From NCBI RefSeq assembly GCF_024700885.2, contig NZ_CP117016.1: 64,000 nt of DNA; one strand, given 5' to 3'. Positions within the stretch are counted from its first letter, which is position 1, and each line of letters opens with the position of its first letter. The stretch comes from Escherichia coli. GTDB taxonomy: Bacteria > Pseudomonadota > Gammaproteobacteria > Enterobacterales > Enterobacteriaceae. Both the position numbers and the translations under genes were made by a program. A model generated the notes under the pieces. It was not told the origin of the DNA. It did no database searches and saw nothing but the letters and a program-made list of their open reading frames with translations. Shown here piece by piece: positions 2,661 to 64,000 of the stretch.

Positions 2661-2717
2661 ATAGCCGCCTTGTTGTAATGACAACATTTTGCGGCTATTC
2701 TTGAATTGTTGATGGTT

Positions 2718-2778
2718 CAAGATTAGCCCCCGTTCTGTTGTCAGGTTTTACCTCTCAACGTGCGGGGGTTTTCTCTTT
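2718..2778 (+). ncRNA. rdl: Putative Rdl antisense RNA (antitoxin), copy 2; ends approximate
   Basis: Same hairpin+T-run as copy 1, in the second repeat unit. Confidence 0.4.
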
Positions 2779-18902: not shown

Positions 18903-19616
18903 TGATGGTGGTGGGGGAAGGATTACTCAGCGCTGCGCGCTTCACCCTTCGGGTCGTTGCCTGCGGCAACGCTTTCTCGCTGGCGCTCGAGTCGCACCTT
19001 GGTCGAAGCTTCTCATCCTTCCCCGCATGGGCAGAATATTTAATTGCGGATTCGTTTGAGAGTTCACGGACTTTTGAAAAGTGATGGTGGTGGGGGAAGG
19101 ATTACTCAGCGCTGCGCGCTTCGCCCTTCGGGTCGTTGCCTGCGGCAACGCTCTCTCGCTGGCGCTCGAGTCGAACCTTGGTCGAAGCTTCTCATCCTTC
19201 CCCGCATGGGCAGAATATTTAATCGCGGATTCGTTTGAGAGTTCACGGACTTTTGAAAGTGATGGTGGTGGGGGAAGGATTACTCAGCGCTGCGCGCTTC
19301 GCCCTTCGGGTCGTTGCCTGCGGCCACGCTCTCTCGTTGGCGCTCGAGTCGAACCTTGGTCGAAGCTTCTCATCCTTCCCCCGCTTGGGCAGAATATTTA
19401 ATTACGGATTCGTTTGAGAGTTCAGGGACTTTTGAAAGTGATGGTGGTGGGGGAAGGATTACTCAGCGCTGCGCGCTTCGCCCTTCGGGTCGTTGCCTGC
19501 GGCCACGCTCTCTCGCTGGCGCTCGAGTCGAACCTTGGTCGAAGCTTCTCATCCTTCCCCGCATGGGCAGAATATTTAATCGCGGATTCGTTTGAGAGTT
19601 CACGGACTTTTGAAAG
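18903..19616. repeat. rtT: Four tandem ~178-bp repeats of the tyrT-operon distal region (rtT/tpr-type), each starting with a copy of the tRNA-Tyr 3' end
   Basis: Units begin at 18903, 19081, 19259 and 19438 (period 178-179 bp, >95% identical); each starts with gtgatggtggtgggggaaggatt, which is the reverse complement of the tRNA-Tyr acceptor/T-arm 3' end. Confidence 0.85.
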
Positions 19617-19619
19617 TGA

Positions 19620-19704
<85 letters not shown>

Positions 19705-19738
19705 AGGGGTAATTCAAATTTTGAGGTAATGCTTGAGA

Positions 19739-19823
<85 letters not shown>

Positions 19824-43665: not shown

Positions 43666-44021
43666 GCACTCTCCTTGAGTTTTATGCAGGTGTTAATTAG
43701 CGGGCAATTGTACCCTGGTTAAGCCTCGGGTGGCAGCATCAGGTCTTGTATGGAAAAGCATATCTTTGTAAAGCGGAGGTAATTGCTGGCCTTCAGGCGT
43801 GGGCAAACCGCTGCAAGTGGCGAGCGAGTTAATATTTGCGTAGCGAAAATATGTAAAAATTGATTTAAATCACATTAACCAGGATTTTCAATGCAACTTC
43901 TAAATTAATCCAGATCAATAAAGGGTGAATTATCATATGTAATGTGATCTATGTAGGATCATTTGTTACTCCAATGTAGGTATATTCGTCACGTTTTTAT
44001 AACCATAACGACGGAGCGGAT

Positions 44022-44660
44022 ATGAAAAAGTTAACAGTGGCGGCTTTGGCAGTAACAACTCTTCTCTCTGGCAGTGCCTTTGCGCATGAAGCAGGCGAAT
44101 TTTTTATGCGTGCAGGTTCTGCAACCGTACGTCCAACAGAAGGTGCTGGTGGTACGTTAGGAAGTCTGGGTGGATTCAGCGTGACCAATAACACTCAACT
44201 GGGCCTGACGTTTACTTATATGGCGACCGACAACATTGGTGTGGAATTACTGGCAGCGACGCCGTTCCGCCATAAAATCGGCACCAGGGCGACCGGCGAT
44301 ATTGCAACCGTTCATCATCTGCCGCCAACACTGATGGCGCAGTGGTATTTTGGTGATGCCAGCAGCAAATTCCGTCCTTATGTTGGGGCAGGCATCAACT
44401 ACACCACCTTCTTTGATAATGGATTTAACGATCATGGCAAAGAGGCGGGGCTTTCCGATCTCAGTCTGAAAGATTCCTGGGGAGCTGCCGGGCAGGTGGG
44501 GGTTGATTATCTGATTAACCGTGACTGGTTGGTTAACATGTCAGTGTGGTACATGGATATCGATACCACGGCTAAGTACAAATCTGGTGTTACTACCGTA
44601 AAAGACTCGGTACGACTGGATCCGTGGGTGTTTATGTTCTCCGCAGGATATCGTTTTTAA
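44022..44660 (+). CDS. ompW: Outer-membrane protein W
   Basis: 212-aa ORF with signal peptide (MKKLTVAALAVTTLLSGSAFA) and C-terminal aromatic residue (…YRF) typical of beta-barrel OMPs. Confidence 0.9.
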   Translation: MKKLTVAALAVTTLLSGSAFAHEAGEFFMRAGSATVRPTEGAGGTLGSLGGFSVTNNTQLGLTFTYMATDNIGVELLAATPFRHKIGTRATGDIATVHHLPPTLMAQWYFGDASSKFRPYVGAGINYTTFFDNGFNDHGKEAGLSDLSLKDSWGAAGQVGVDYLINRDWLVNMSVWYMDIDTTAKYKSGVTTVKDSVRLDPWVFMFSAGYRF

Positions 44661-44705: not shown

Positions 44706-45836
44706 TCAAATGACCAGTTTTTTCCATTCCTTACCGCGTGCATCGTTATAAATATCGGTCATTTTTTGATTCGAATGGCCTAGCAAAATTTTGGTATCAA
44801 CCCCCTGCTCTCTGAACAATCGCTCTGATAAAGATCTCTGCTCATGGAAAGAGGGTGGGGTGCCATTAGCACGCCAGTTGTAATCCACAGAATCCCGGGC
44901 TTTTTTAAATGCAACGGTTAATGTTGCTGGCTTAACCATCCCGCCGCGCTTAGCTGTCCCTTTCGCGTGATGGTGGTGCAATAGCCACGGACTAAGAACG
45001 CAATCGCGGCAGGATGACACTACATCATCCAGGGTGAGATTTAATTTATCGCAACGCAGAGCCAGAGGGATGGCAATCCGGGTTCCTGTTTTTTGCTGTT
45101 CGACATGAAGATAACCATCCCGGATATCCGAAAATTGCATTTTGCAAATATCTGAAAGGCGCTGGCCTGTCATCAGTGCCAGCAGCATACCGCGCTGTAA
45201 AAAGTAACCATCCTTTTCCGCTGCGTTATAAATCATCATCCACTCATCAAAAGTCAGTCGCTGTCTTGATATCCGCACCTGCGGTTTTTTTGCCGATTCT
45301 GCAGGGTTAAAGCCTGGCGGGACATCGCCCGTTTGCTGAGCTTCCCGGAAAACATCGATCAGTACTTTCCTGAAAATTTGTCCCATTCTGTTATGTCCTC
45401 TGGCCTTGTACTCTTCCAGTACTGATACCACATCTTTTACGGTTATGGCATCTAACGGTCTGGTGCCAAAACGTTCATCAAATACCCTGAGAGGGGCCGC
45501 TTTCTGTTTCAGCGTGTTGAGTTTGATCTCGCCGTTTTCATATCTTTCCTGTTGAATTTTTCTGTAATTATTCAGAAAAATGGTAACGGTTGATGAACCG
45601 CCGGTATCACTAATAATTTTCTCCTGCAGACTGAGCATTTGTTCCATTTGCTGCCGGGCAAGACGGCTGTTCGCTTCTGCTGCAATAGTTTCTGCCAGTT
45701 TCTGGTCAATACTGCCGAGACCGTGATTTTTGCCTGTTATGGGATGCCTGTAACGCCAGTAAACTTTGTTATTTCTTTTGTCAAAATACGGAGATAATCC
45801 CGGAACATCGGTTTTATATTTTCGCGGGCGCGCCAT
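44706..45836 (-). CDS. int: Phage tyrosine integrase
   Basis: 376-aa ORF ending at the ompW-proximal junction; C-terminal LLGHSNQKMTDIY box II with catalytic Tyr; overlaps the upstream xis gene by 23 nt. Confidence 0.9.
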   Translation of the reverse strand: MARPRKYKTDVPGLSPYFDKRNNKVYWRYRHPITGKNHGLGSIDQKLAETIAAEANSRLARQQMEQMLSLQEKIISDTGGSSTVTIFLNNYRKIQQERYENGEIKLNTLKQKAAPLRVFDERFGTRPLDAITVKDVVSVLEEYKARGHNRMGQIFRKVLIDVFREAQQTGDVPPGFNPAESAKKPQVRISRQRLTFDEWMMIYNAAEKDGYFLQRGMLLALMTGQRLSDICKMQFSDIRDGYLHVEQQKTGTRIAIPLALRCDKLNLTLDDVVSSCRDCVLSPWLLHHHHAKGTAKRGGMVKPATLTVAFKKARDSVDYNWRANGTPPSFHEQRSLSERLFREQGVDTKILLGHSNQKMTDIYNDARGKEWKKLVI

Positions 45837-46062
45837 CTTCCAGTATCCTCTTCAAAGCAGGGTGATCTGTGGCGATCACCTCCGGCTTGTTTACCATTCC
45901 GACAAAGCGAGCTTGCGGATCCACTCGCCAGCGTCTTCCAACTTTTTTGGGGAGAGGAAATATCATTCCGGCTTTAGCGTATTTACTTAACGTACTCGGA
46001 GTAGGGACCGGTTCACTGAATTCCTCTTTTGCCCACTCAGTGAGCAGAATAAGTCTTGCCAT
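45814..46062 (-). CDS. xis: Excisionase (lambda Xis-like)
   Basis: 82-aa ORF just upstream of and overlapping int; basic winged-helix-like core (GMIFPLPKKVGRRWRV). Confidence 0.65.
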   Translation of the reverse strand: MARLILLTEWAKEEFSEPVPTPSTLSKYAKAGMIFPLPKKVGRRWRVDPQARFVGMVNKPEVIATDHPALKRILEDGAPAKI

Positions 46063-46126: not shown

Positions 46127-48571
46127 TTAAAAATCAGCCTGATTCGGGATCAGTTTTTGCCAGATAACTGAAACGTATTTTGCCTGGTAACGGGCGTCAT
46201 CAAGTGCATTATGGCGCTCACCTTCGAATGGAATAGCCGTTCTGGCATCGAAGTCTATGGCTTTCCCCAGCTCAACGATTGTGCGTACATCTCGATCGTT
46301 GTAGTAACGCCACGGGCAGGGGATCCCCTGCCGTTCGTATGAACGGCGCAAAATCGTGTTGTCGAAGTTGGCTCCATTTCCCCAGACCTGAACAAAAAAT
46401 TCACCGGAGTTTTCGTCGATAAATTCCCGCAATTGTAACAGTGCATCATCTAACGGGATTTCATCGGTCATAATGGCAGATTGCGCTTCGCGTGATTGCT
46501 TAAGCCACCATTTAATGGTGTCCCGATCAATGACCCCGCCAGCAGTTTCCAGATCGATAGTCTTACTAAATTCCGGTCCCATATCTCCGGTTTGCGGATC
46601 GAAAAATATTGCACCTATTGAGATGATCGGGGCATCAGGATTTTTTCCCATGGTTTCAAGGTCGATCATTAGATGGTCACACGTCCTGCTGGTGGATGTG
46701 ATAATGTAATGATCGTTCACCGTAATTAAGGGATCTGCCGTCTCGCCAGTTTCACTATCGCTGGCGTGATCCTGAGCGCTGCCAGCATTCTCCTTGTGTG
46801 GATGTTCAGCGCCTTCCATTTCCTTCGGATCATTTTCCTGAACTTCAACCTGATTCTCTTCATCGAATGTTTCCTGGTATGTTGCGTCGCCCATCACCGC
46901 GCCACAATCAGGGCAGTTACCGCCGCCGGTCTGACCGCAGGCGGTGCAGACTTTTTCCACTTCCTGTTGCGCCACTGGTTCAGGCTGTTTCGTTTCTGGC
47001 TCGTTTTGTTGCGTATTTGGGCTGTTTTGTTCCGCTTTCTGGTCGTTCTGTTCCGATTCTTGCTGGTTCTGGTTTACAGAATCGCGGGTTTCAATCCCCT
47101 TTACCCATTTCGGATCATTCGGGTCGCTAATCCCTGCAACAAATTCTCCGCGAGAGGCAGCCAGTAATTTGTCTGCATCGACAGGATTTTTGGGCGGAAT
47201 GTTTTTCCGGGCTTCATAGAGTTCTGCCCGCAGTTTCTGATATTTCGCATCAACAGAATTTACCTGTGACTGAGCATCCAGCGGCTGCGTGTCCTGATGA
47301 TGTTCAGTTGCATCCGGTTCCACTGTTTCAGCCGTTGCCTGTTCATCTGCCATTGCGCAAGATGGTTGCAGTTTTTCTTCATCATCCTGTTTTTCTTCTT
47401 CTGTTACACGCTGCGGCATCGGGGCAGAGGAACGACCGCAGGCAATATCCACGATTTCTGGATCAGGGTTGGCATGATCAGTTTCAGTCAGTACTTTGTT
47501 AAGATATTCAGTGACGTGTGCGGGGATAACCTCGATCCCAATTGGTGCTTCTTTTACGGACGCAACCACGATGGCGCGGGAATAATCCAGCCCGCCAGGC
47601 ATGGTGATGAATTTGTCGCGGAAAACAGAAAAGGGCGGTTTATTTTCAGCGATAATTTCCTCGACACGTTTAGCGTGTGCCGGATGAAGGTTATAAATGT
47701 CCACGTCCATTGAACGAGCCAGTACGCCAGTGGCTACGTCGCGCGCCAGTGACGTCAGATCGTGAACGAAACCTTCGCCGCGATCGGTGAGGTTCCCGCC
47801 GCCAGCATTAGCGCCGGAAGCCGTGCGCGTGATGCGTGAAACACGATTTCCTTTCATCCACTCTTTTGTCAGCAGACCGCGATCGGTGTAGTCTGCGTCC
47901 AGGTATGCTTCGAAAAAAGCAGTCATCAGCCCCAGGCTTGAATTGCCTGGATTAGGGAAAACTCTGTCAGTATCACGCACCAGTTTGTGGAGATCGCGAA
48001 TTTCCAGCGGGTCGAGCAGGCTGGTTTTGTGGGAAACAGCCAGGGCAGTAACAGCTGGTAGTTCTTCAGCTCGTGCAATGTGTAATGCCTGTAGTTCGTT
48101 GCGTGAAACGTGCGTTACCGGTTTTTCGCTGCCGTGTTGAGCAAGCCAGCGAATGGGCAGCTCCTGACCGGAAATCGGGAGTAGCATATTCTCCTCAATC
48201 TCCGTCATGTCTTCGCCATTAACATTGGTATTGTCAGTGCTGGCTGGCTTGTCCTGCGCAGAGGATGAGGGCGCGATAAATACCATTGTGATGCCATCTT
48301 CCCCGCCTTTTTCGTAACGGTTGCAGAATTCCGTATCAAATACGCCTTCTGGTGGAAGGTCATCAACAACGGGCAAATTGACGCGAACAGGTTTTTTAAA
48401 GTCATCTTCATCGTAGCCAGCATCGTCAATCGCAACAGCACCACGATAGATGGCAATGGATAATTTTTTCGCTTCAGCCCAGTAGAAACCGCCTTTAATA
48501 CCGAGACGTTTTCTTACTTTGTCATTTTTTGCTTCGTAATACAGTGGGTAAACTTGTTTATCGGTGCTCAT
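46127..48571 (-). CDS. Large early-region protein (814 aa) with C-terminal DEDDh (DnaQ-like) 3'-5' exonuclease domain
   Basis: C-terminal ~180 aa carry Exo I (MIDLETMG), Exo II ([12 protein letters not shown]) and Exo III (HNALDDARY) motifs; the central segment is highly acidic/low-complexity with a CxxC...CxxC zinc ribbon ([16 protein letters not shown]). Confidence 0.6.
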
Positions 48572-48670
48572 TGCTTTTTAACCTCAACTCAGATTAAAAT
48601 TAATGCGAGTGATGAATAAATGTCCCAGGTTCTTCACTCAGGCCTGCACAGTGTGCAGGCTTTCTTTTTT

Positions 48671-48946
48671 TCAGATTTCACCTTTTAATTTCATTGCAAT
48701 CAGAGTTGCCAGAAATTCGGCTTTTTTTTCTGCGGGCAGATTCTTTCCTATGTGCACCAGACACATTTTTTTAACACCATCGTTAAGTGTTTTAACGTTG
48801 CCTGTTGAACTGTCGATATCAACCACAGTGAATGGGGTTTCTTTATTTTCTGTTTTAATCACGTAGCCAATACGTTTTCCCTCCAGGATAACTTCGAGCA
48901 CAATGCCATCAGTAGTAACAATGGTGGCTTCATAACTGTTAATCAT
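48671..48946 (-). CDS. Hypothetical phage protein (91 aa)
   Basis: ATG at 48946 preceded by AAGGAG at 6-nt spacing (MINSYEATIVTTDGIVLEVILEGKRIGYV...); the 16-codon upstream extension in the track is rejected. Confidence 0.5.
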   Translation of the reverse strand: MINSYEATIVTTDGIVLEVILEGKRIGYVIKTENKETPFTVVDIDSSTGNVKTLNDGVKKMCLVHIGKNLPAEKKAEFLATLIAMKLKGEI

Positions 48947-49020
48947 GTTTTTCTCCTTAATTAAGGTTGAGCGAATCTCTGCCATTGCTGGCATAAATTC
49001 AGTTTTGAATAGTCAGTTAA

Positions 49021-49308
49021 TTAAAGTTCGTGTGCCATCTGGTATTTTTCGGCGCATTGCTTACAGCAGTATTTATGCTCCTTACGTGCAATAAGGGAAC
49101 CGTGCATATAAATAATTTCAGCGGTAAAGGCTTTTTCAGGTTCAATTTGTTTATTACAGAGCGTATATGCACAGGGAATTAAATCCGGGTCACCCTTTTG
49201 CTGGAGGATTTTTCTGATTCTCCACAGCCATTTTTTAATTCCGGTGTGACTGATGGTCTGCCTGGAGGCAGGCGTAAAACAATAATCAAGCATGGGGTTC
49301 ATATCCAT
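49021..49308 (-). CDS. Hypothetical Cys-rich phage protein (95 aa), possible zinc-binding
   Basis: ORF with clustered cysteines (PCAYTLC, KYCCKQC); same strand and operon context as neighbours. Confidence 0.4.
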   Translation of the reverse strand: MDMNPMLDYCFTPASRQTISHTGIKKWLWRIRKILQQKGDPDLIPCAYTLCNKQIEPEKAFTAEIIYMHGSLIARKEHKYCCKQCAEKYQMAHEL

Positions 49309-49318
49309 AGCTCCATTT

Positions 49319-49873
49319 TTATTTTAAGGAAAGCAACTGCTCTACGGTCATATTTTTAATTGCGCTCCGGTTTACAAGAGTCCAGCCTTGTTGCTCCAGA
49401 TAAAACAGGAAGGTATCCAGGGTGCAGACCATTGCGCCGTCAGGAACGGTTTCAGTGAATTTGATATTGCCGTGTTCGTCGAGACGGATAACCAGGGTGC
49501 GTCCGTCCCCGTGAATCATTTTGTCGGGAGACGGGGCGTTATTCTGGCGCAGTTCAGCTTCCATGCGGTCGAACTCAGCAATGTATGCCTCTTTAAATGC
49601 AGCGGCTTTTTTGCCAGTGAAGCCCATCACCAGGAAAACGAAGCCGTTTTTGGTGATTTGGTACATTGGGAGTTTGCGCCCGGTTGAGTCGGTGTATTCG
49701 CTCGACACAAAATTGTGCTCAGTGAATTTTGCTGAACAGTCCAGATTGCGAATTTTATCCAACACTCGTTCGTGGCGTTTGCCAAAGAACTCGGCGATCG
49801 CAACAGACGTAGTGACAGCGCGACCATTTTCGATGGTTACGTCAGGGTGAGAAAGGGTAAGGATAGTAGCCAT
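49319..49873 (-). CDS. Rha-family phage regulatory protein (184 aa)
   Basis: ATG at 49873 preceded by GGAGG; N-terminal motif VTTSVAIAEFFGKRHERVLDKIRNL and downstream PMYQITKNGFVFLVMGFTGKKAAAFKEAYIAEFDRME match the pRha pattern. The 100-codon upstream extension of the track ORF reads through a terminator hairpin and is rejected. Confidence 0.65.
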   Translation of the reverse strand: MATILTLSHPDVTIENGRAVTTSVAIAEFFGKRHERVLDKIRNLDCSAKFTEHNFVSSEYTDSTGRKLPMYQITKNGFVFLVMGFTGKKAAAFKEAYIAEFDRMEAELRQNNAPSPDKMIHGDGRTLVIRLDEHGNIKFTETVPDGAMVCTLDTFLFYLEQQGWTLVNRSAIKNMTVEQLLSLK

Positions 49874-50042
49874 GATGGCAGCCTCCGCGATGAATTTGAT
49901 TAACTCACCACCGAGGTTTTCCACGACCATAAGGGTGGTGAGACGTACAGGGGTGGAAATACCGGTCATCACGGAACCCGGCCAGCCTTGCGGCTGCCCT
50001 GCACGCCCCACCATAATGCGAATGTGGCTGTGCTTAACGCAT

Positions 50043-50064
50043 AAAAAAACCGCCTGAGCGCGGT
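50043..50064 (-). terminator. Rho-independent terminator downstream of the DicF-like sRNA
   Basis: On the minus strand, aaccgcgctcaggcggtt hairpin followed by TTTTTTT. Confidence 0.55.
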
Positions 50065-50352
50065 TATGCGCCGTGAATGATTTCGGGTTTCCACGCCCGG
50101 CACCCGTTTTATGAGGTGCAGGTGCACTATAATTCCACCCGTTCTGGTTTTCAATAGCTACATTCAACATTTTCTCTACCTTTCATCACCGAAGTGAACT
50201 TTGTTGATGCGGTGCCTGGTGCCTCCAGGTGATGTTAACCAGTTAACAATTAACGCCGGATACAGAGAATCCACCCATAACACTGTTTTTGGTTTTAACT
50301 GTTCCGCGTGCGCTGAGCCGCATTCACCGCATCACAAAATTCACTTTAAAAA

Positions 50353-50405
50353 GGGCGGCAGAGCAGTCACGGAGTAAAACTGATACCGCCAAAAGTCACC
50401 AGAAA
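50353..50405 (-). ncRNA. dicF: DicF-like sRNA (cell-division inhibitor sRNA of Qin-type prophages)
   Basis: Minus-strand 53 nt TTTCTGGTGACTTTTGGCGGTATCAGTTTTACTCCGTGACTGCTCTGCCGCCC differs at one position from the K-12 DicF sequence as I recall it; followed by a T-run. Confidence 0.65.
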
Positions 50406-51813: not shown

Positions 51814-52488
51814 TCAGTCTAAGTATTGATGTATTTGTGAAACTTTACCTTTAATGGTGTAACCACCATTCAGTTCGATGGGTTTGTAAAGCGGATTCAG
51901 TGACAACAGATAGATGTTTGGTCCGTCAATCGCAACTTTTTTTAGTGTTACGTTTGGCGTTCCTTCCAATTGGATTAAGATTATTTTTCCCACCAGTTCT
52001 CTAATGTTACTTGAGCATGGTGTGATCAGCACGGTAGATCCGTCGGGGATGGTTGGGAGGCCGTTAGAGTTTGTCATCGCATCTCCCTCAACATGCAATA
52101 AAAAAGAGTTTTCAGCGGTTTTTGTCATGACATCAACCCAGTTCTTAATACCAGGAATCTTGGTTACTGGACAACTCATATCCCAATAACCAGCCTGTTC
52201 CCACGTTAAAACGGGCAACCGGGCGATGTTGTCACTAATGTAAGGGTACTGATTCAGACGCAGATCATCGGTTTTATCGTGACCGTCCTTTCCATAAAGA
52301 ATCCATTCAGGAGATTTGGAAAGCAATTTTGACAGTAGATACAAATTCTCACCGTCAGGTTTTGAAGAGCCATTTTCCCATTTTGTTACGGATACACGAG
52401 ATATGCCGATTGCTTTCGCAACCTGCTGTTGGGTTAATCCAACGTCTTTTCGACGATTCCGAATACGTTCGCTGATAGTGTTTTTCAT
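51814..52488 (-). CDS. cI: CI-like prophage repressor (HTH_XRE plus S24 LexA-like peptidase domain)
   Basis: N-terminal XRE HTH (GLTQQQVAKAIGISRVSVTKWENG) and C-terminal S24-like domain; divergent from the cro-like gene. Start chosen at ATG 52488 (MKNTISERIR..., 224 aa, no SD, compatible with a leaderless PRM-type transcript); alternative start at 52530. Confidence 0.8.
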   Translation of the reverse strand: MKNTISERIRNRRKDVGLTQQQVAKAIGISRVSVTKWENGSSKPDGENLYLLSKLLSKSPEWILYGKDGHDKTDDLRLNQYPYISDNIARLPVLTWEQAGYWDMSCPVTKIPGIKNWVDVMTKTAENSFLLHVEGDAMTNSNGLPTIPDGSTVLITPCSSNIRELVGKIILIQLEGTPNVTLKKVAIDGPNIYLLSLNPLYKPIELNGGYTIKGKVSQIHQYLD

Positions 52489-52550
52489 GTAACCAATGTT
52501 ACTACCAAGTGATGTTGCTATGGTTGACATTGTTATGTAACTATTGTTAC
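52489..52550. promoter_or_regulatory. Putative operator/divergent-promoter region between cI and cro
   Basis: Two 14-bp inverted repeats of the same form, GTAACCAATGTTAC (52489-52502) and GTAACTATTGTTAC (52537-52550), plus a TTGACA hexamer at 52524-52529. Confidence 0.4.
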
Positions 52551-52579
52551 CCTTCTGCTCGAAATAACAGGAGAGTTTT

Positions 52580-52795
52580 ATGTTCAAAGATGATGTTCTG
52601 CGCTATTTCAAAAAAAAGCGACTAGTAGCTGAGGCTCTTGGAATTTCACATGTGGCTGTTGTGCGGTGGAAAGCAGTTATTCCCAAACTTCGCGCAATGG
52701 AACTGGATGAAATTACTAACGGTGAATTGAAATACAACCCAGAACTTTACAAGAAGCAGGATAGCACCTCGAACGAAGGAAAGAATGATTCATGA
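52580..52795 (+). CDS. cro: Cro-like / YdaS-family HTH regulator (71 aa)
   Basis: Small HTH ORF (RLVAEALGISHVAVVRWKAVIP) divergent from cI; AGGAG RBS; stop overlaps the next gene (ATGA). Confidence 0.7.
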   Translation: MFKDDVLRYFKKKRLVAEALGISHVAVVRWKAVIPKLRAMELDEITNGELKYNPELYKKQDSTSNEGKNDS

Positions 52796-58012: not shown

Positions 58013-58223
58013 TTTCATATTGGCGAGGTGACGGGAGTTAAGTAGAATGGCTGCGGGTGCTTGAGGCTATCTGTCTCAGGCATGAACACCAAAGGCAGAT
58101 AGAGAAAAGCCCCAGTTAACATTACGCGTCCTGCAAGACGCTTAACATTAATCTGAGGCCATATCTATGCTCTACACACGTAGGTTAGCCTCTTACGTGC
58201 CGAAAGGCAAGGAGAAGCAGGCT

Positions 58224-58379
58224 ATGAAGCAGCAAAAGGCGATGCTAATCGCCCTGATCGTCATCTGTTTAACCGTCATGGTGACGGCACTGGTAACGAG
58301 GAAAGACCTCTGCGAGGTACGAATCCGAACCGGCCAGACGGAGGTCGCTGTCTTCACAGCTTACGAACCTGAGGAGTAA
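58224..58379 (+). CDS. hok: Hok/Gef-family type I toxin (51 aa), near-identical to HokD/RelF
   Basis: MKQQKAMLIALIVICLTVMVTALVTRKDLCEVRIRTGQTEVAVFTAYEPEE; the in-frame upstream extension in the track (from 58167) is not the toxin start. Confidence 0.85.
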   Translation: MKQQKAMLIALIVICLTVMVTALVTRKDLCEVRIRTGQTEVAVFTAYEPEE

Positions 58380-62757: not shown

Positions 62758-62833
62758 GGCCCTTTAGCTCAGTGGTGAGAGCGAGCGACTCATAATCGCC
62801 AGGTCGCTGGTTCAAATCCAGCAAGGGCCACCA
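62758..62833 (+). tRNA. Prophage tRNA with CAU anticodon (Ile2/lysidine-type, ileZ-like; Met not excluded)
   Basis: 76 nt folding into a cloverleaf by hand: acceptor GGCCCTT/AAGGGCC, D-stem GCTC/GAGC, anticodon loop CTCATAA, T-arm GCTGG-TTCAAAT-CCAGC, 3' ACCA. Confidence 0.8.
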
Positions 62834-62933: not shown

Positions 62934-63010
62934 GCGTTGTTAGCTCAGCCGGACAGAGCAATTGCCTTCTAAGCAATCGGTCACTGGTTCGAATCCAGTA
63001 CAGCGCGCCA
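62934..63010 (+). tRNA. Prophage tRNA-Arg (UCU)
   Basis: 77 nt: acceptor GCGTTGT/ACAGCGC, D-arm TAGCTCAGCCGGACAGAGCA, anticodon loop CTTCTAA, T-arm ACTGG-TTCGAAT-CCAGT, 3' GCCA; related to argU-type tRNAs. Confidence 0.8.
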
Positions 63011-63474: not shown

Positions 63475-64000
63475 ATACATATCTGGATTATCACCGGTTA
63501 CGGTAAAAAGTGATTGCTTACTGTTTTTGTGAATGGCATTGCAGCAGCCGGATAATGTCAGTGCTGGCTGACGGTGTGCTGGTGGCGGGTGTGGTGGTTG
63601 CTGCTTTCCCGTTGCTGAAAAAGAAAACGCCAGACTGTTAGCCGGGTATCAGTTAGCGGGAGAAATTTTTAAATACTTCACAATTCAGGCGGTTGACTGT
63701 TGTCTGGTTTGCGGGGAGTTTGTTAAAAGAAACTGGCATGGTGAATCCCCCTGTGCGGAGGGGCAATCAGCGAGTAGGTATATGGGATAATCGCGGATTC
63801 AGGTGCTGGTACTGAATTCACCGGGAGGCACCCGGCACCATGCAATGGCACATAGCGCCACTCTCCAGCCCCTCTCCGGAGGGGCTGTTTATATTGATTT
63901 TGTCAGATGTGAGTAAACTCCTTATGGACTTTGTTGTTTTAGCCCATAAGGACATATTTGCAGAGTGCAACGGTTATTAAAGCATTCATTCAATACGTTA

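Follow-up and report, generated by a model that had tools for sequence, protein, structure and literature searches.

The window analysed here is a 64,000-nt stretch of Escherichia coli DNA (contig NZ_CP117016.1), whose 44-54 kb part forms the left arm of a Rac-like lambdoid prophage adjoining ompW (44022-44660). On the minus strand the genes follow one another in the order int, xis, exonuclease gene, 91-aa gene, 95-aa gene, Rha ORF and other left-operon genes (Table 1). The first-pass annotation, made from the letters of the window, had described two small ORFs on this strand, with a Rha-family gene upstream and a large exonuclease gene downstream, and had placed them in the leftward early operon of a lambdoid phage. 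Both ORFs were found at the coordinates and on the strand given, the Rha-family ORF lies upstream, the downstream exonuclease measures 814 aa, and the gene order agrees with the leftward operon of a lambdoid (Rac-like) prophage. The two genes had also been regarded as unknown and without a nameable motif. This description had to be abandoned, because both match named families, RacC (NF007306) and YdaE (NF041288, PF27493). On these matches they are assigned to two families that are already known and were described from the Rac prophage of E. coli. The locus is best explained by leftward co-transcription of both genes with a Rha-type antirepressor gene upstream and a RecE-family exonuclease gene downstream.

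The prophage stretch is 100% identical to E. coli MLI114, whose identical genes carry the RefSeq labels 'hypothetical protein' (91-aa gene) and 'YdaE family protein' (95-aa gene). It retains int, xis, repressor and cro, and recT is absent. The exact arrangement of the window is rare, being present in seven of 5426 complete E. coli genomes.

Table 1. Positions of the genes, protein domains and RNA elements in the prophage left arm, numbered from the first letter of the window.
Feature	Position	Strand	Remarks
Integrase gene int	44706-45836	-	
Excisionase gene xis	45814-46062	-	
814-aa exonuclease	46127-48571	-	RecE N-terminal region + DnaQ-like 3'-5' exonuclease domain
racC	48671-48946	-	91-aa RacC ortholog
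ydaE-racC intergenic region	48947-49020	-	Holds the AAGGAG ribosome-binding site; conserved 5' flank of the variable slot
Long-form ydaE	49021-49308	-	95-aa ORF; probably 93 aa from ATG 49302
YdaE zinc-finger domain	49021-49179	-	Residues 44-95; Cys4 site + conserved C-terminal QMAHEL tail
YdaE 43-aa N-terminal extension	49180-49308	-	MNPMLDYCF motif, amphipathic helix 22-37, QKGDP linker
Rha/Ash-type antirepressor ORF	49319-50170	-	PF09669 + PF10554
C4-type antisense RNA	49931-50018	-	Rfam, in 5' third of Rha/Ash ORF
isrK RNA	50043-50119	-	Rfam, in 5' third of Rha/Ash ORF
Terminator-like site	50065-50048	-	isrK 3' end
Promoter-like site	50154-50126	-	Just upstream of isrK
DicF sRNA	50353-50404	-	Rfam
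LexA-family repressor	51814-52587		End of listed left-operon genes; divergent cro beyond

Further elements lie to both sides of this region. Between yciC and ompW the annotation shows a 90-nt piece of a YkgJ-family cysteine-cluster gene (43693-43782), the prophage being on the other side of ompW. Further into the prophage, all on the plus strand, are a sok antitoxin RNA of a hok/sok-type module (58055-58229), two tRNA genes (62758-62830 and 62934-63007) and a match to the STnc100 sRNA (63707-63896). The chromosomal side of the window holds two rdlD antitoxin RNAs of ldr/rdl repeats (2173-2238 and 2709-2774, plus strand) and four RtT repeats together with two tRNAs (18906-19823, minus strand).

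The racC gene and its product

The racC frame begins with an ATG at 48946 and ends with a stop codon at 48671-48673. The AAGGAG ribosome-binding site that had been ascribed to the 91-aa gene was confirmed; it lies 6 nt before this ATG. When the ORF is called mechanically, it reaches an upstream ATG at 48994 and encodes 107 aa, a start that is used in some database entries. This longer form is disfavoured: its start has no ribosome-binding site, three of the four differences in the extension are non-synonymous in the alignment, and the K-12 reference has 91 aa. The ribosome-binding site and the 91-aa reference thus favour the start at 48946.

RacC of the window is 88% identical to K-12 RacC (b1351) over all 91 aa, with eleven substitutions. 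It matches NF007306, the NCBIfam model to which K-12 RacC corresponds, with 180.8 bits against a cut-off of 171 (E=4e-54, profile positions 1-91 of 91), and phrog_4778 with E=2.5e-53. The K-12 Rac prophage shares with the window the ribosome-binding site, the intergenic sequence upstream and the position of racC between ydaE and a RecE-family gene. However, K-12 Rac carries RecE's own nuclease downstream where the window has the DnaQ-like domain, and the window prophage lacks recT. racC-like DNA is present in 1950 of the 5426 complete E. coli genomes, and the dN/dS of racC against K-12 is 0.14.

The AF2 model of RacC (pLDDT 85) has five strands and two helices, so that RacC is predicted to be a small alpha+beta protein. 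Within the family the first ~55 residues are nearly invariant and the C-terminal helices are variable. Three positions with a conservation of at least 90% in the family are changed in the window protein (H17L, G46S and S48T), whose allele is carried by only a single IMG/VR locus and a few E. coli genomes. The gene contains an A8 and an A7 run (48722-48729 and 48766-48772), and the window copy is intact. Many RacC C-termini in the databases read as frameshifted past the two A-runs (e.g. ...KKPNFWQL); such frequent frameshifted copies fit decay in cryptic prophages.

PADLOC gave no match for RacC or YdaE, and neither protein showed sequence or fold similarity to the anti-restriction, anti-CRISPR and Gam families compared (Ocr, Ral, ArdA, Acr, Gam). 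Sequence searches of the PDB with the RacC and YdaE family profiles returned nothing meaningful.

The long form of ydaE

The 95-aa ORF begins 11 nt past the Rha stop codon. GGAG lies 2 nt from its first ATG (49308) and 8 nt from the ATG at the third codon (49302), and most homologues start with MNPMLDYCF. From this spacing and these starts a 93-aa protein beginning at 49302 is the more likely one, and it is probably the real ydaE product. Residues 44-95 match NF041288 (YdaE_coli) with 76.2 bits against a cut-off of 35, over profile positions 1-50 of 50, and are 52% identical over 52 aa to K-12 YdaE (b4526, 56 aa). phrog_6751 matches the 95-aa protein over its full length, and every close homologue contains the more recent Pfam family PF27493 (YdaE).

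K-12 YdaE has the same Cys4 pattern, the same C-terminal YC..CAEK.QMAHEL motif and the same position upstream of racC. It differs in lacking the 43-aa N-terminal extension and in following kilR, whereas ydaE of the window follows a Rha-type antirepressor gene. Members of the family are either short (51-58 aa) or long (86-100 aa), the long ones occurring also in more distant Enterobacteria, and the extension is present in relatives of 88-100 aa down to ~37% identity. Among 80 IMG/VR racC loci, long YdaE was seen only where Rha, not kilR, lies upstream (two of 80). Against five homologues (dS about 1-1.7) the dN/dS of ydaE is 0.15-0.20, and for the first 41 codons alone it is 0.10-0.24; the N-terminal extension is under purifying selection. 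The family is small: an exhaustive HMM search of 1.84 billion representatives with the YdaE profile gave 23 clusters at a 50% identity level and did not turn up distant relatives of informative value. In K-12, disruption of ydaE was described to improve fitness under several chemical stresses and to make cells less susceptible to T6SS attack by Agrobacterium, indirect effects that could be polar.

The predicted zinc site of YdaE

In an alignment of 30 YdaE family members, C46, C51, C81 and C85 are either invariant or conserved to at least 90%, and most members have Ser in place of C82. Of the clustered cysteines pointed out by the first-pass annotation, these four are thus conserved and C82 is not. 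C10 is nearly invariant among close long-form homologues (alignment A1). The model built from the 30-sequence alignment has a pLDDT of 87-93 for residues 41-95, with ~90 in the zinc domain; the N-terminal 20 residues are of low confidence, and a helix at 22-37 reaches ~75. The modelled domain is composed of a knuckle with C46 and C51, a beta-hairpin and a helix with C81 and C85 at its N-terminus. YdaE is modelled as a one-zinc finger with a knuckle like those of SmtA, eL24, TRASH and YacG plus a helix. K-12 YdaE is annotated as 'zinc-binding protein' and is cited as such after Blindauer et al. (2002). The small zinc-binding fold first suggested by the richness in cysteine is borne out by the conserved Cys4 set, the confident finger model and the K-12 annotation.

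The only PDB sequence match of K-12 YdaE was the metallothionein SmtA, through the motif KCA..C..V..SKAI...YCSEACA. In sequence and in fold YdaE resembles the zinc-finger part only of SmtA/BmtA (PDB 1jjd), and this resemblance, together with a listing in the literature as 'putative Zn2+ chaperone', would fit a zinc chaperone or metallothionein-like metal handler. The four conserved cysteines, however, allow one site only. SmtA reportedly builds its four-zinc cluster with additional Cys and His ligands, and E. coli YdaE is said to have bound a single zinc via four cysteines. With only four cysteines conserved, a single zinc site is indicated and not a metallothionein, and the multi-metal cluster of SmtA/BmtA does not extend to YdaE. 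The family comprises few clusters, moreover, and is restricted to early operons of prophages, next to recombination genes. We consider a role in metal handling very improbable.

Structure comparison of YdaE listed YacG, FCS, TRASH, FYVE and HPV E7 CR3, all with low scores of the kind that any treble-clef finger of 45 residues would obtain. Such a domain could also be read as a zinc finger that binds nucleic acid and controls the operon or an RNA or DNA target of the host, yet the low scores extend over the whole list, which also contains the protein-binding fingers YacG, HPV E7 CR3 and FYVE. In addition, YdaE has no basic patch, and its conserved QMAHEL tail is acidic to neutral. Binding of nucleic acid is thus given little probability. 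YacG, a zinc-finger inhibitor of DNA gyrase (PDB 4tma_I), has no detectable sequence relationship to YdaE and another cysteine spacing. A weak Pfam match of YdaE to Rtr1/RPAP2 (21.7 bits against a cut-off of 33) was dismissed as generic zinc-finger similarity.

RNA elements in the Rha ORF

Matches above the gathering score to the Rfam families RF01394 and RF01695 place isrK and a C4-type antisense RNA inside the Rha ORF, where they share DNA with the Pfam Phage_ASH match of this 283-aa frame. The true start of the antirepressor may be internal to the annotated ORF. The layout is similar to that of the isrK-anrP locus of Gifsy-1. In Gifsy-1, read-through of the IsrK terminator gives an mRNA, and the short IsrK RNA switches on its translation. 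Since ydaE starts 11 nt past the Rha stop codon, co-transcription of the two is probable, and their translation may be coupled. By analogy with Gifsy-1, ydaE and racC may be reached by read-through from the isrK module as well as from pL.

DicF is followed by an 84-nt fragment of dicB only (~50200-50283), which is a pseudogene in the identical RefSeq record. From this remnant, the Rha-ydaE-racC block appears to have replaced the dicB-ydfD genes of Qin-type prophages. The dicB fragment and the missing recT would also suit a reading in which ydaE and racC are functionless passengers of a decaying, mosaic prophage in this strain; the rarity of the exact arrangement and the frameshifted racC copies elsewhere point the same way. 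Both frames are, however, intact and have good ribosome-binding sites, both are under purifying selection in comparison with diverged homologues, and int, xis, repressor and cro are kept. Conservation across related prophages, which the first-pass annotation had asked for, was found: racC-like DNA occurs in 1950 of 5426 genomes, and dN/dS is well below 1 in both frames. That the two genes are mere passengers is therefore considered quite unlikely.

A variable slot upstream of the RecE N-terminal domain

The exonuclease carries the domains PF06630 (Exonuc_VIII) and PF16473 (Rv2179c-like). Its residues 48-616 are 79% identical to residues 40-591 of the N-terminal part of RecE, and it has no similarity to the C-terminal nuclease of RecE. 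It is a chimera in which a DnaQ-like 3'-5' domain replaces the 5'-3' nuclease of RecE. The RecE N-terminal domain (RecE-N) was found in three contexts: joined to the nuclease of RecE itself and followed by recT (K-12; Salmonella); as a free-standing protein of ~650 aa with gam, recT and yqaJ downstream; and fused to a DnaQ-like 3'-5' exonuclease, as in the window. Matches to at least 80% of the length of the last form are present in 1242 of 5426 E. coli genomes. Three sampled genomes have ydfD-dicB or kil-Rha upstream of this RecE-N::DnaQ exonuclease, and no racC-ydaE.

In the window the exonuclease start lies 99 nt past the racC stop. The interval between them contains a GC-rich hairpin with a 10-bp stem (48640-48662). 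Its T-run is on the plus strand, so that its orientation is that of a terminator of antisense transcripts, and K-12 keeps the hairpin with a compensatory change of A-T to G-C.

Two samples of 80 loci were compared, IMG/VR loci recovered with RacC and loci recovered with YdaE (L099-L178). In the first sample ydaE lies 233 nt upstream of racC in 79 of 80 loci, and the RecE-N ORF starts ~375 nt past the racC start in 77. Of the three racC loci without a downstream RecE-N ORF, L014 and L078 are on contigs that end shortly after racC; in L081 the C-terminal part of RecE and recT follow racC, and the N-terminal region is undetectable. In the second sample, 77 of 80 loci have the start of a RecE-N ORF 130-672 nt beyond ydaE, irrespective of what fills the slot between them. 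The co-occurrence analysis across prophages that had been proposed at the outset thus links ydaE with the RecE-N ORF. Counted without dereplication, the slot of the 80 YdaE-recovered loci holds RacC in 32, a family of 110-128 aa (phrog_2016) in 27, a family of 95-98 aa (phrog_2434) in nine and a family of 109-117 aa in three; it is without a gene in seven, and the contig ended in two. Prophages of E. coli, of Salmonella and of more distant enterobacteria share this order almost throughout.

The flanks of the slot, i.e. the end of ydaE with the AAGGAG leader on one side and the stretch just before the exonuclease start on the other, are conserved as DNA between very different cassettes. Over four loci with strongly differing ydaE alleles, the intergenic region upstream of racC has a mean column identity of 98%. 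The same leader precedes unrelated slot genes, where it is seen as a shared 'MPAMAGI..' translation. A distant relationship of RacC to other slot families (phrog_2434 and the 109-117-aa family) was considered and rejected: profile-profile hhalign gave probabilities of 2-10% (2.4% in the RacC test), and single-sequence hhalign of RacC against other slot families gave colinear, non-significant alignments. We conclude that ydaE, a slot for a variable small gene and the RecE-N ORF form a conserved arrangement in which the slot gene is swappable.

Discussion

The racC and ydaE genes of the window are members of a Rac-like prophage operon, and we consider it likely that the former encodes an inhibitor of the retron toxin RcaT; the latter, in its long form, may encode a zinc-stabilised adaptor or inhibitor. 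The evidence on RacC comes from K-12. In a genome-wide over-expression screen, published as a preprint, no other gene blocked RcaT, the toxin of the tripartite retron-Sen2, as strongly as K-12 racC, and the block was seen even without inducer. RcaT of retron-Eco9 was likewise blocked. K-12 RacC rescued every antitoxin-deletion mutant, and therefore it acts on the toxin and not on the antitoxin. RecE, the neighbour of racC in K-12, triggers retron-Sen2 by degrading mature msDNA. The authors of the screen regarded racC-recE as a blocker-trigger pair and presumed direct binding of RcaT, and two later reviews repeat the RacC/RecE result from the published paper. The preprint's main text makes no mention of ydaE.

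The first-pass annotation had guessed at an anti-defence role of the small genes, and for the 91-aa gene the guess can be upheld, as the 88%-identical K-12 RacC blocks the toxin RcaT of retrons Sen2 and Eco9. From this identity and the identical synteny, the window RacC most likely does the same as the K-12 allele. It would act as a counter-defence factor that neutralises RcaT of retron-type abortive-infection systems, presumably by binding, so that the phage could express a nuclease that processes DNA ends and not trigger the retron. The blocking assay concerns the K-12 allele only, and the departures of the window allele at the three conserved positions named above are counted against a transfer of the function. 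The nuclease of the window is, moreover, predicted to be DnaQ-like and 3'-5', not the 5'-3' domain of RecE that degrades msDNA, and so the logic of blocker and trigger may not transfer.

Other phage factors counteract retron defence as well, among them T5 Rad and a phage tRNA-Tyr. RacC differs from these and from lambda Gam in its target, which is the toxin RcaT, whereas the others concern msDNA, tRNA or RecBCD. In lambda, Gam adjoins the recombination genes, just upstream of them in the leftward operon. Its position in the operon is equivalent, but no match to the Gam family was obtained with RacC or YdaE, and prophages related to that of the window carry a separate Gam gene besides.

The near-constant order of ydaE, slot and RecE-N gene, which is kept even with a separate YqaJ or a fused DnaQ-like nuclease, invites a different explanation. 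RacC and YdaE would belong to the recombination/exonuclease module, as accessory subunits or as regulators, and would work with the RecE N-terminal domain rather than in counter-defence, and the block of RcaT would be a side effect of over-expression. This seems unlikely to us. The position of racC is swappable or empty, which is unexpected for an obligatory subunit; the RecE-N::DnaQ exonuclease occurs without racC or ydaE upstream in the three sampled genomes; and RcaT is blocked by RacC without inducer, too. We therefore retain the retron toxin as the likely target of RacC.

For YdaE, the tight linkage to the RecE-N gene is the reason to think of a zinc-stabilised, protein-binding adaptor or inhibitor, with a host factor or the exonuclease module as its supposed target. 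That YdaE may be an inhibitor of a host factor, in the manner of YacG, or a partner of the RecE N-terminal domain is an idea that we hold loosely. It is tempting to speculate further that ydaE, the slot and the RecE-N gene form a counter-defence cassette, in which interchangeable blockers each disarm a different abortive-infection toxin and YdaE is the constant zinc-finger component. The toxins would be those set off by the end-processing nucleases of the phage, and YdaE would work with the RecE N-terminal domain or inhibit a common host sensor. To this extended view we assign only a small probability.

As found, the re-identification of racC and ydaE in the window matters little. RefSeq, however, labels an ortholog of an experimentally supported anti-retron factor 'hypothetical protein', and annotation pipelines and the anti-defence resources consulted appear to miss RacC. 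YdaE, a biochemically characterised zinc protein, gains a clear genomic partner in the RecE N-terminal domain. Finally, a slot that holds at least four unrelated families of small proteins is a cheap and delimited hunting ground for blockers of abortive-infection toxins.
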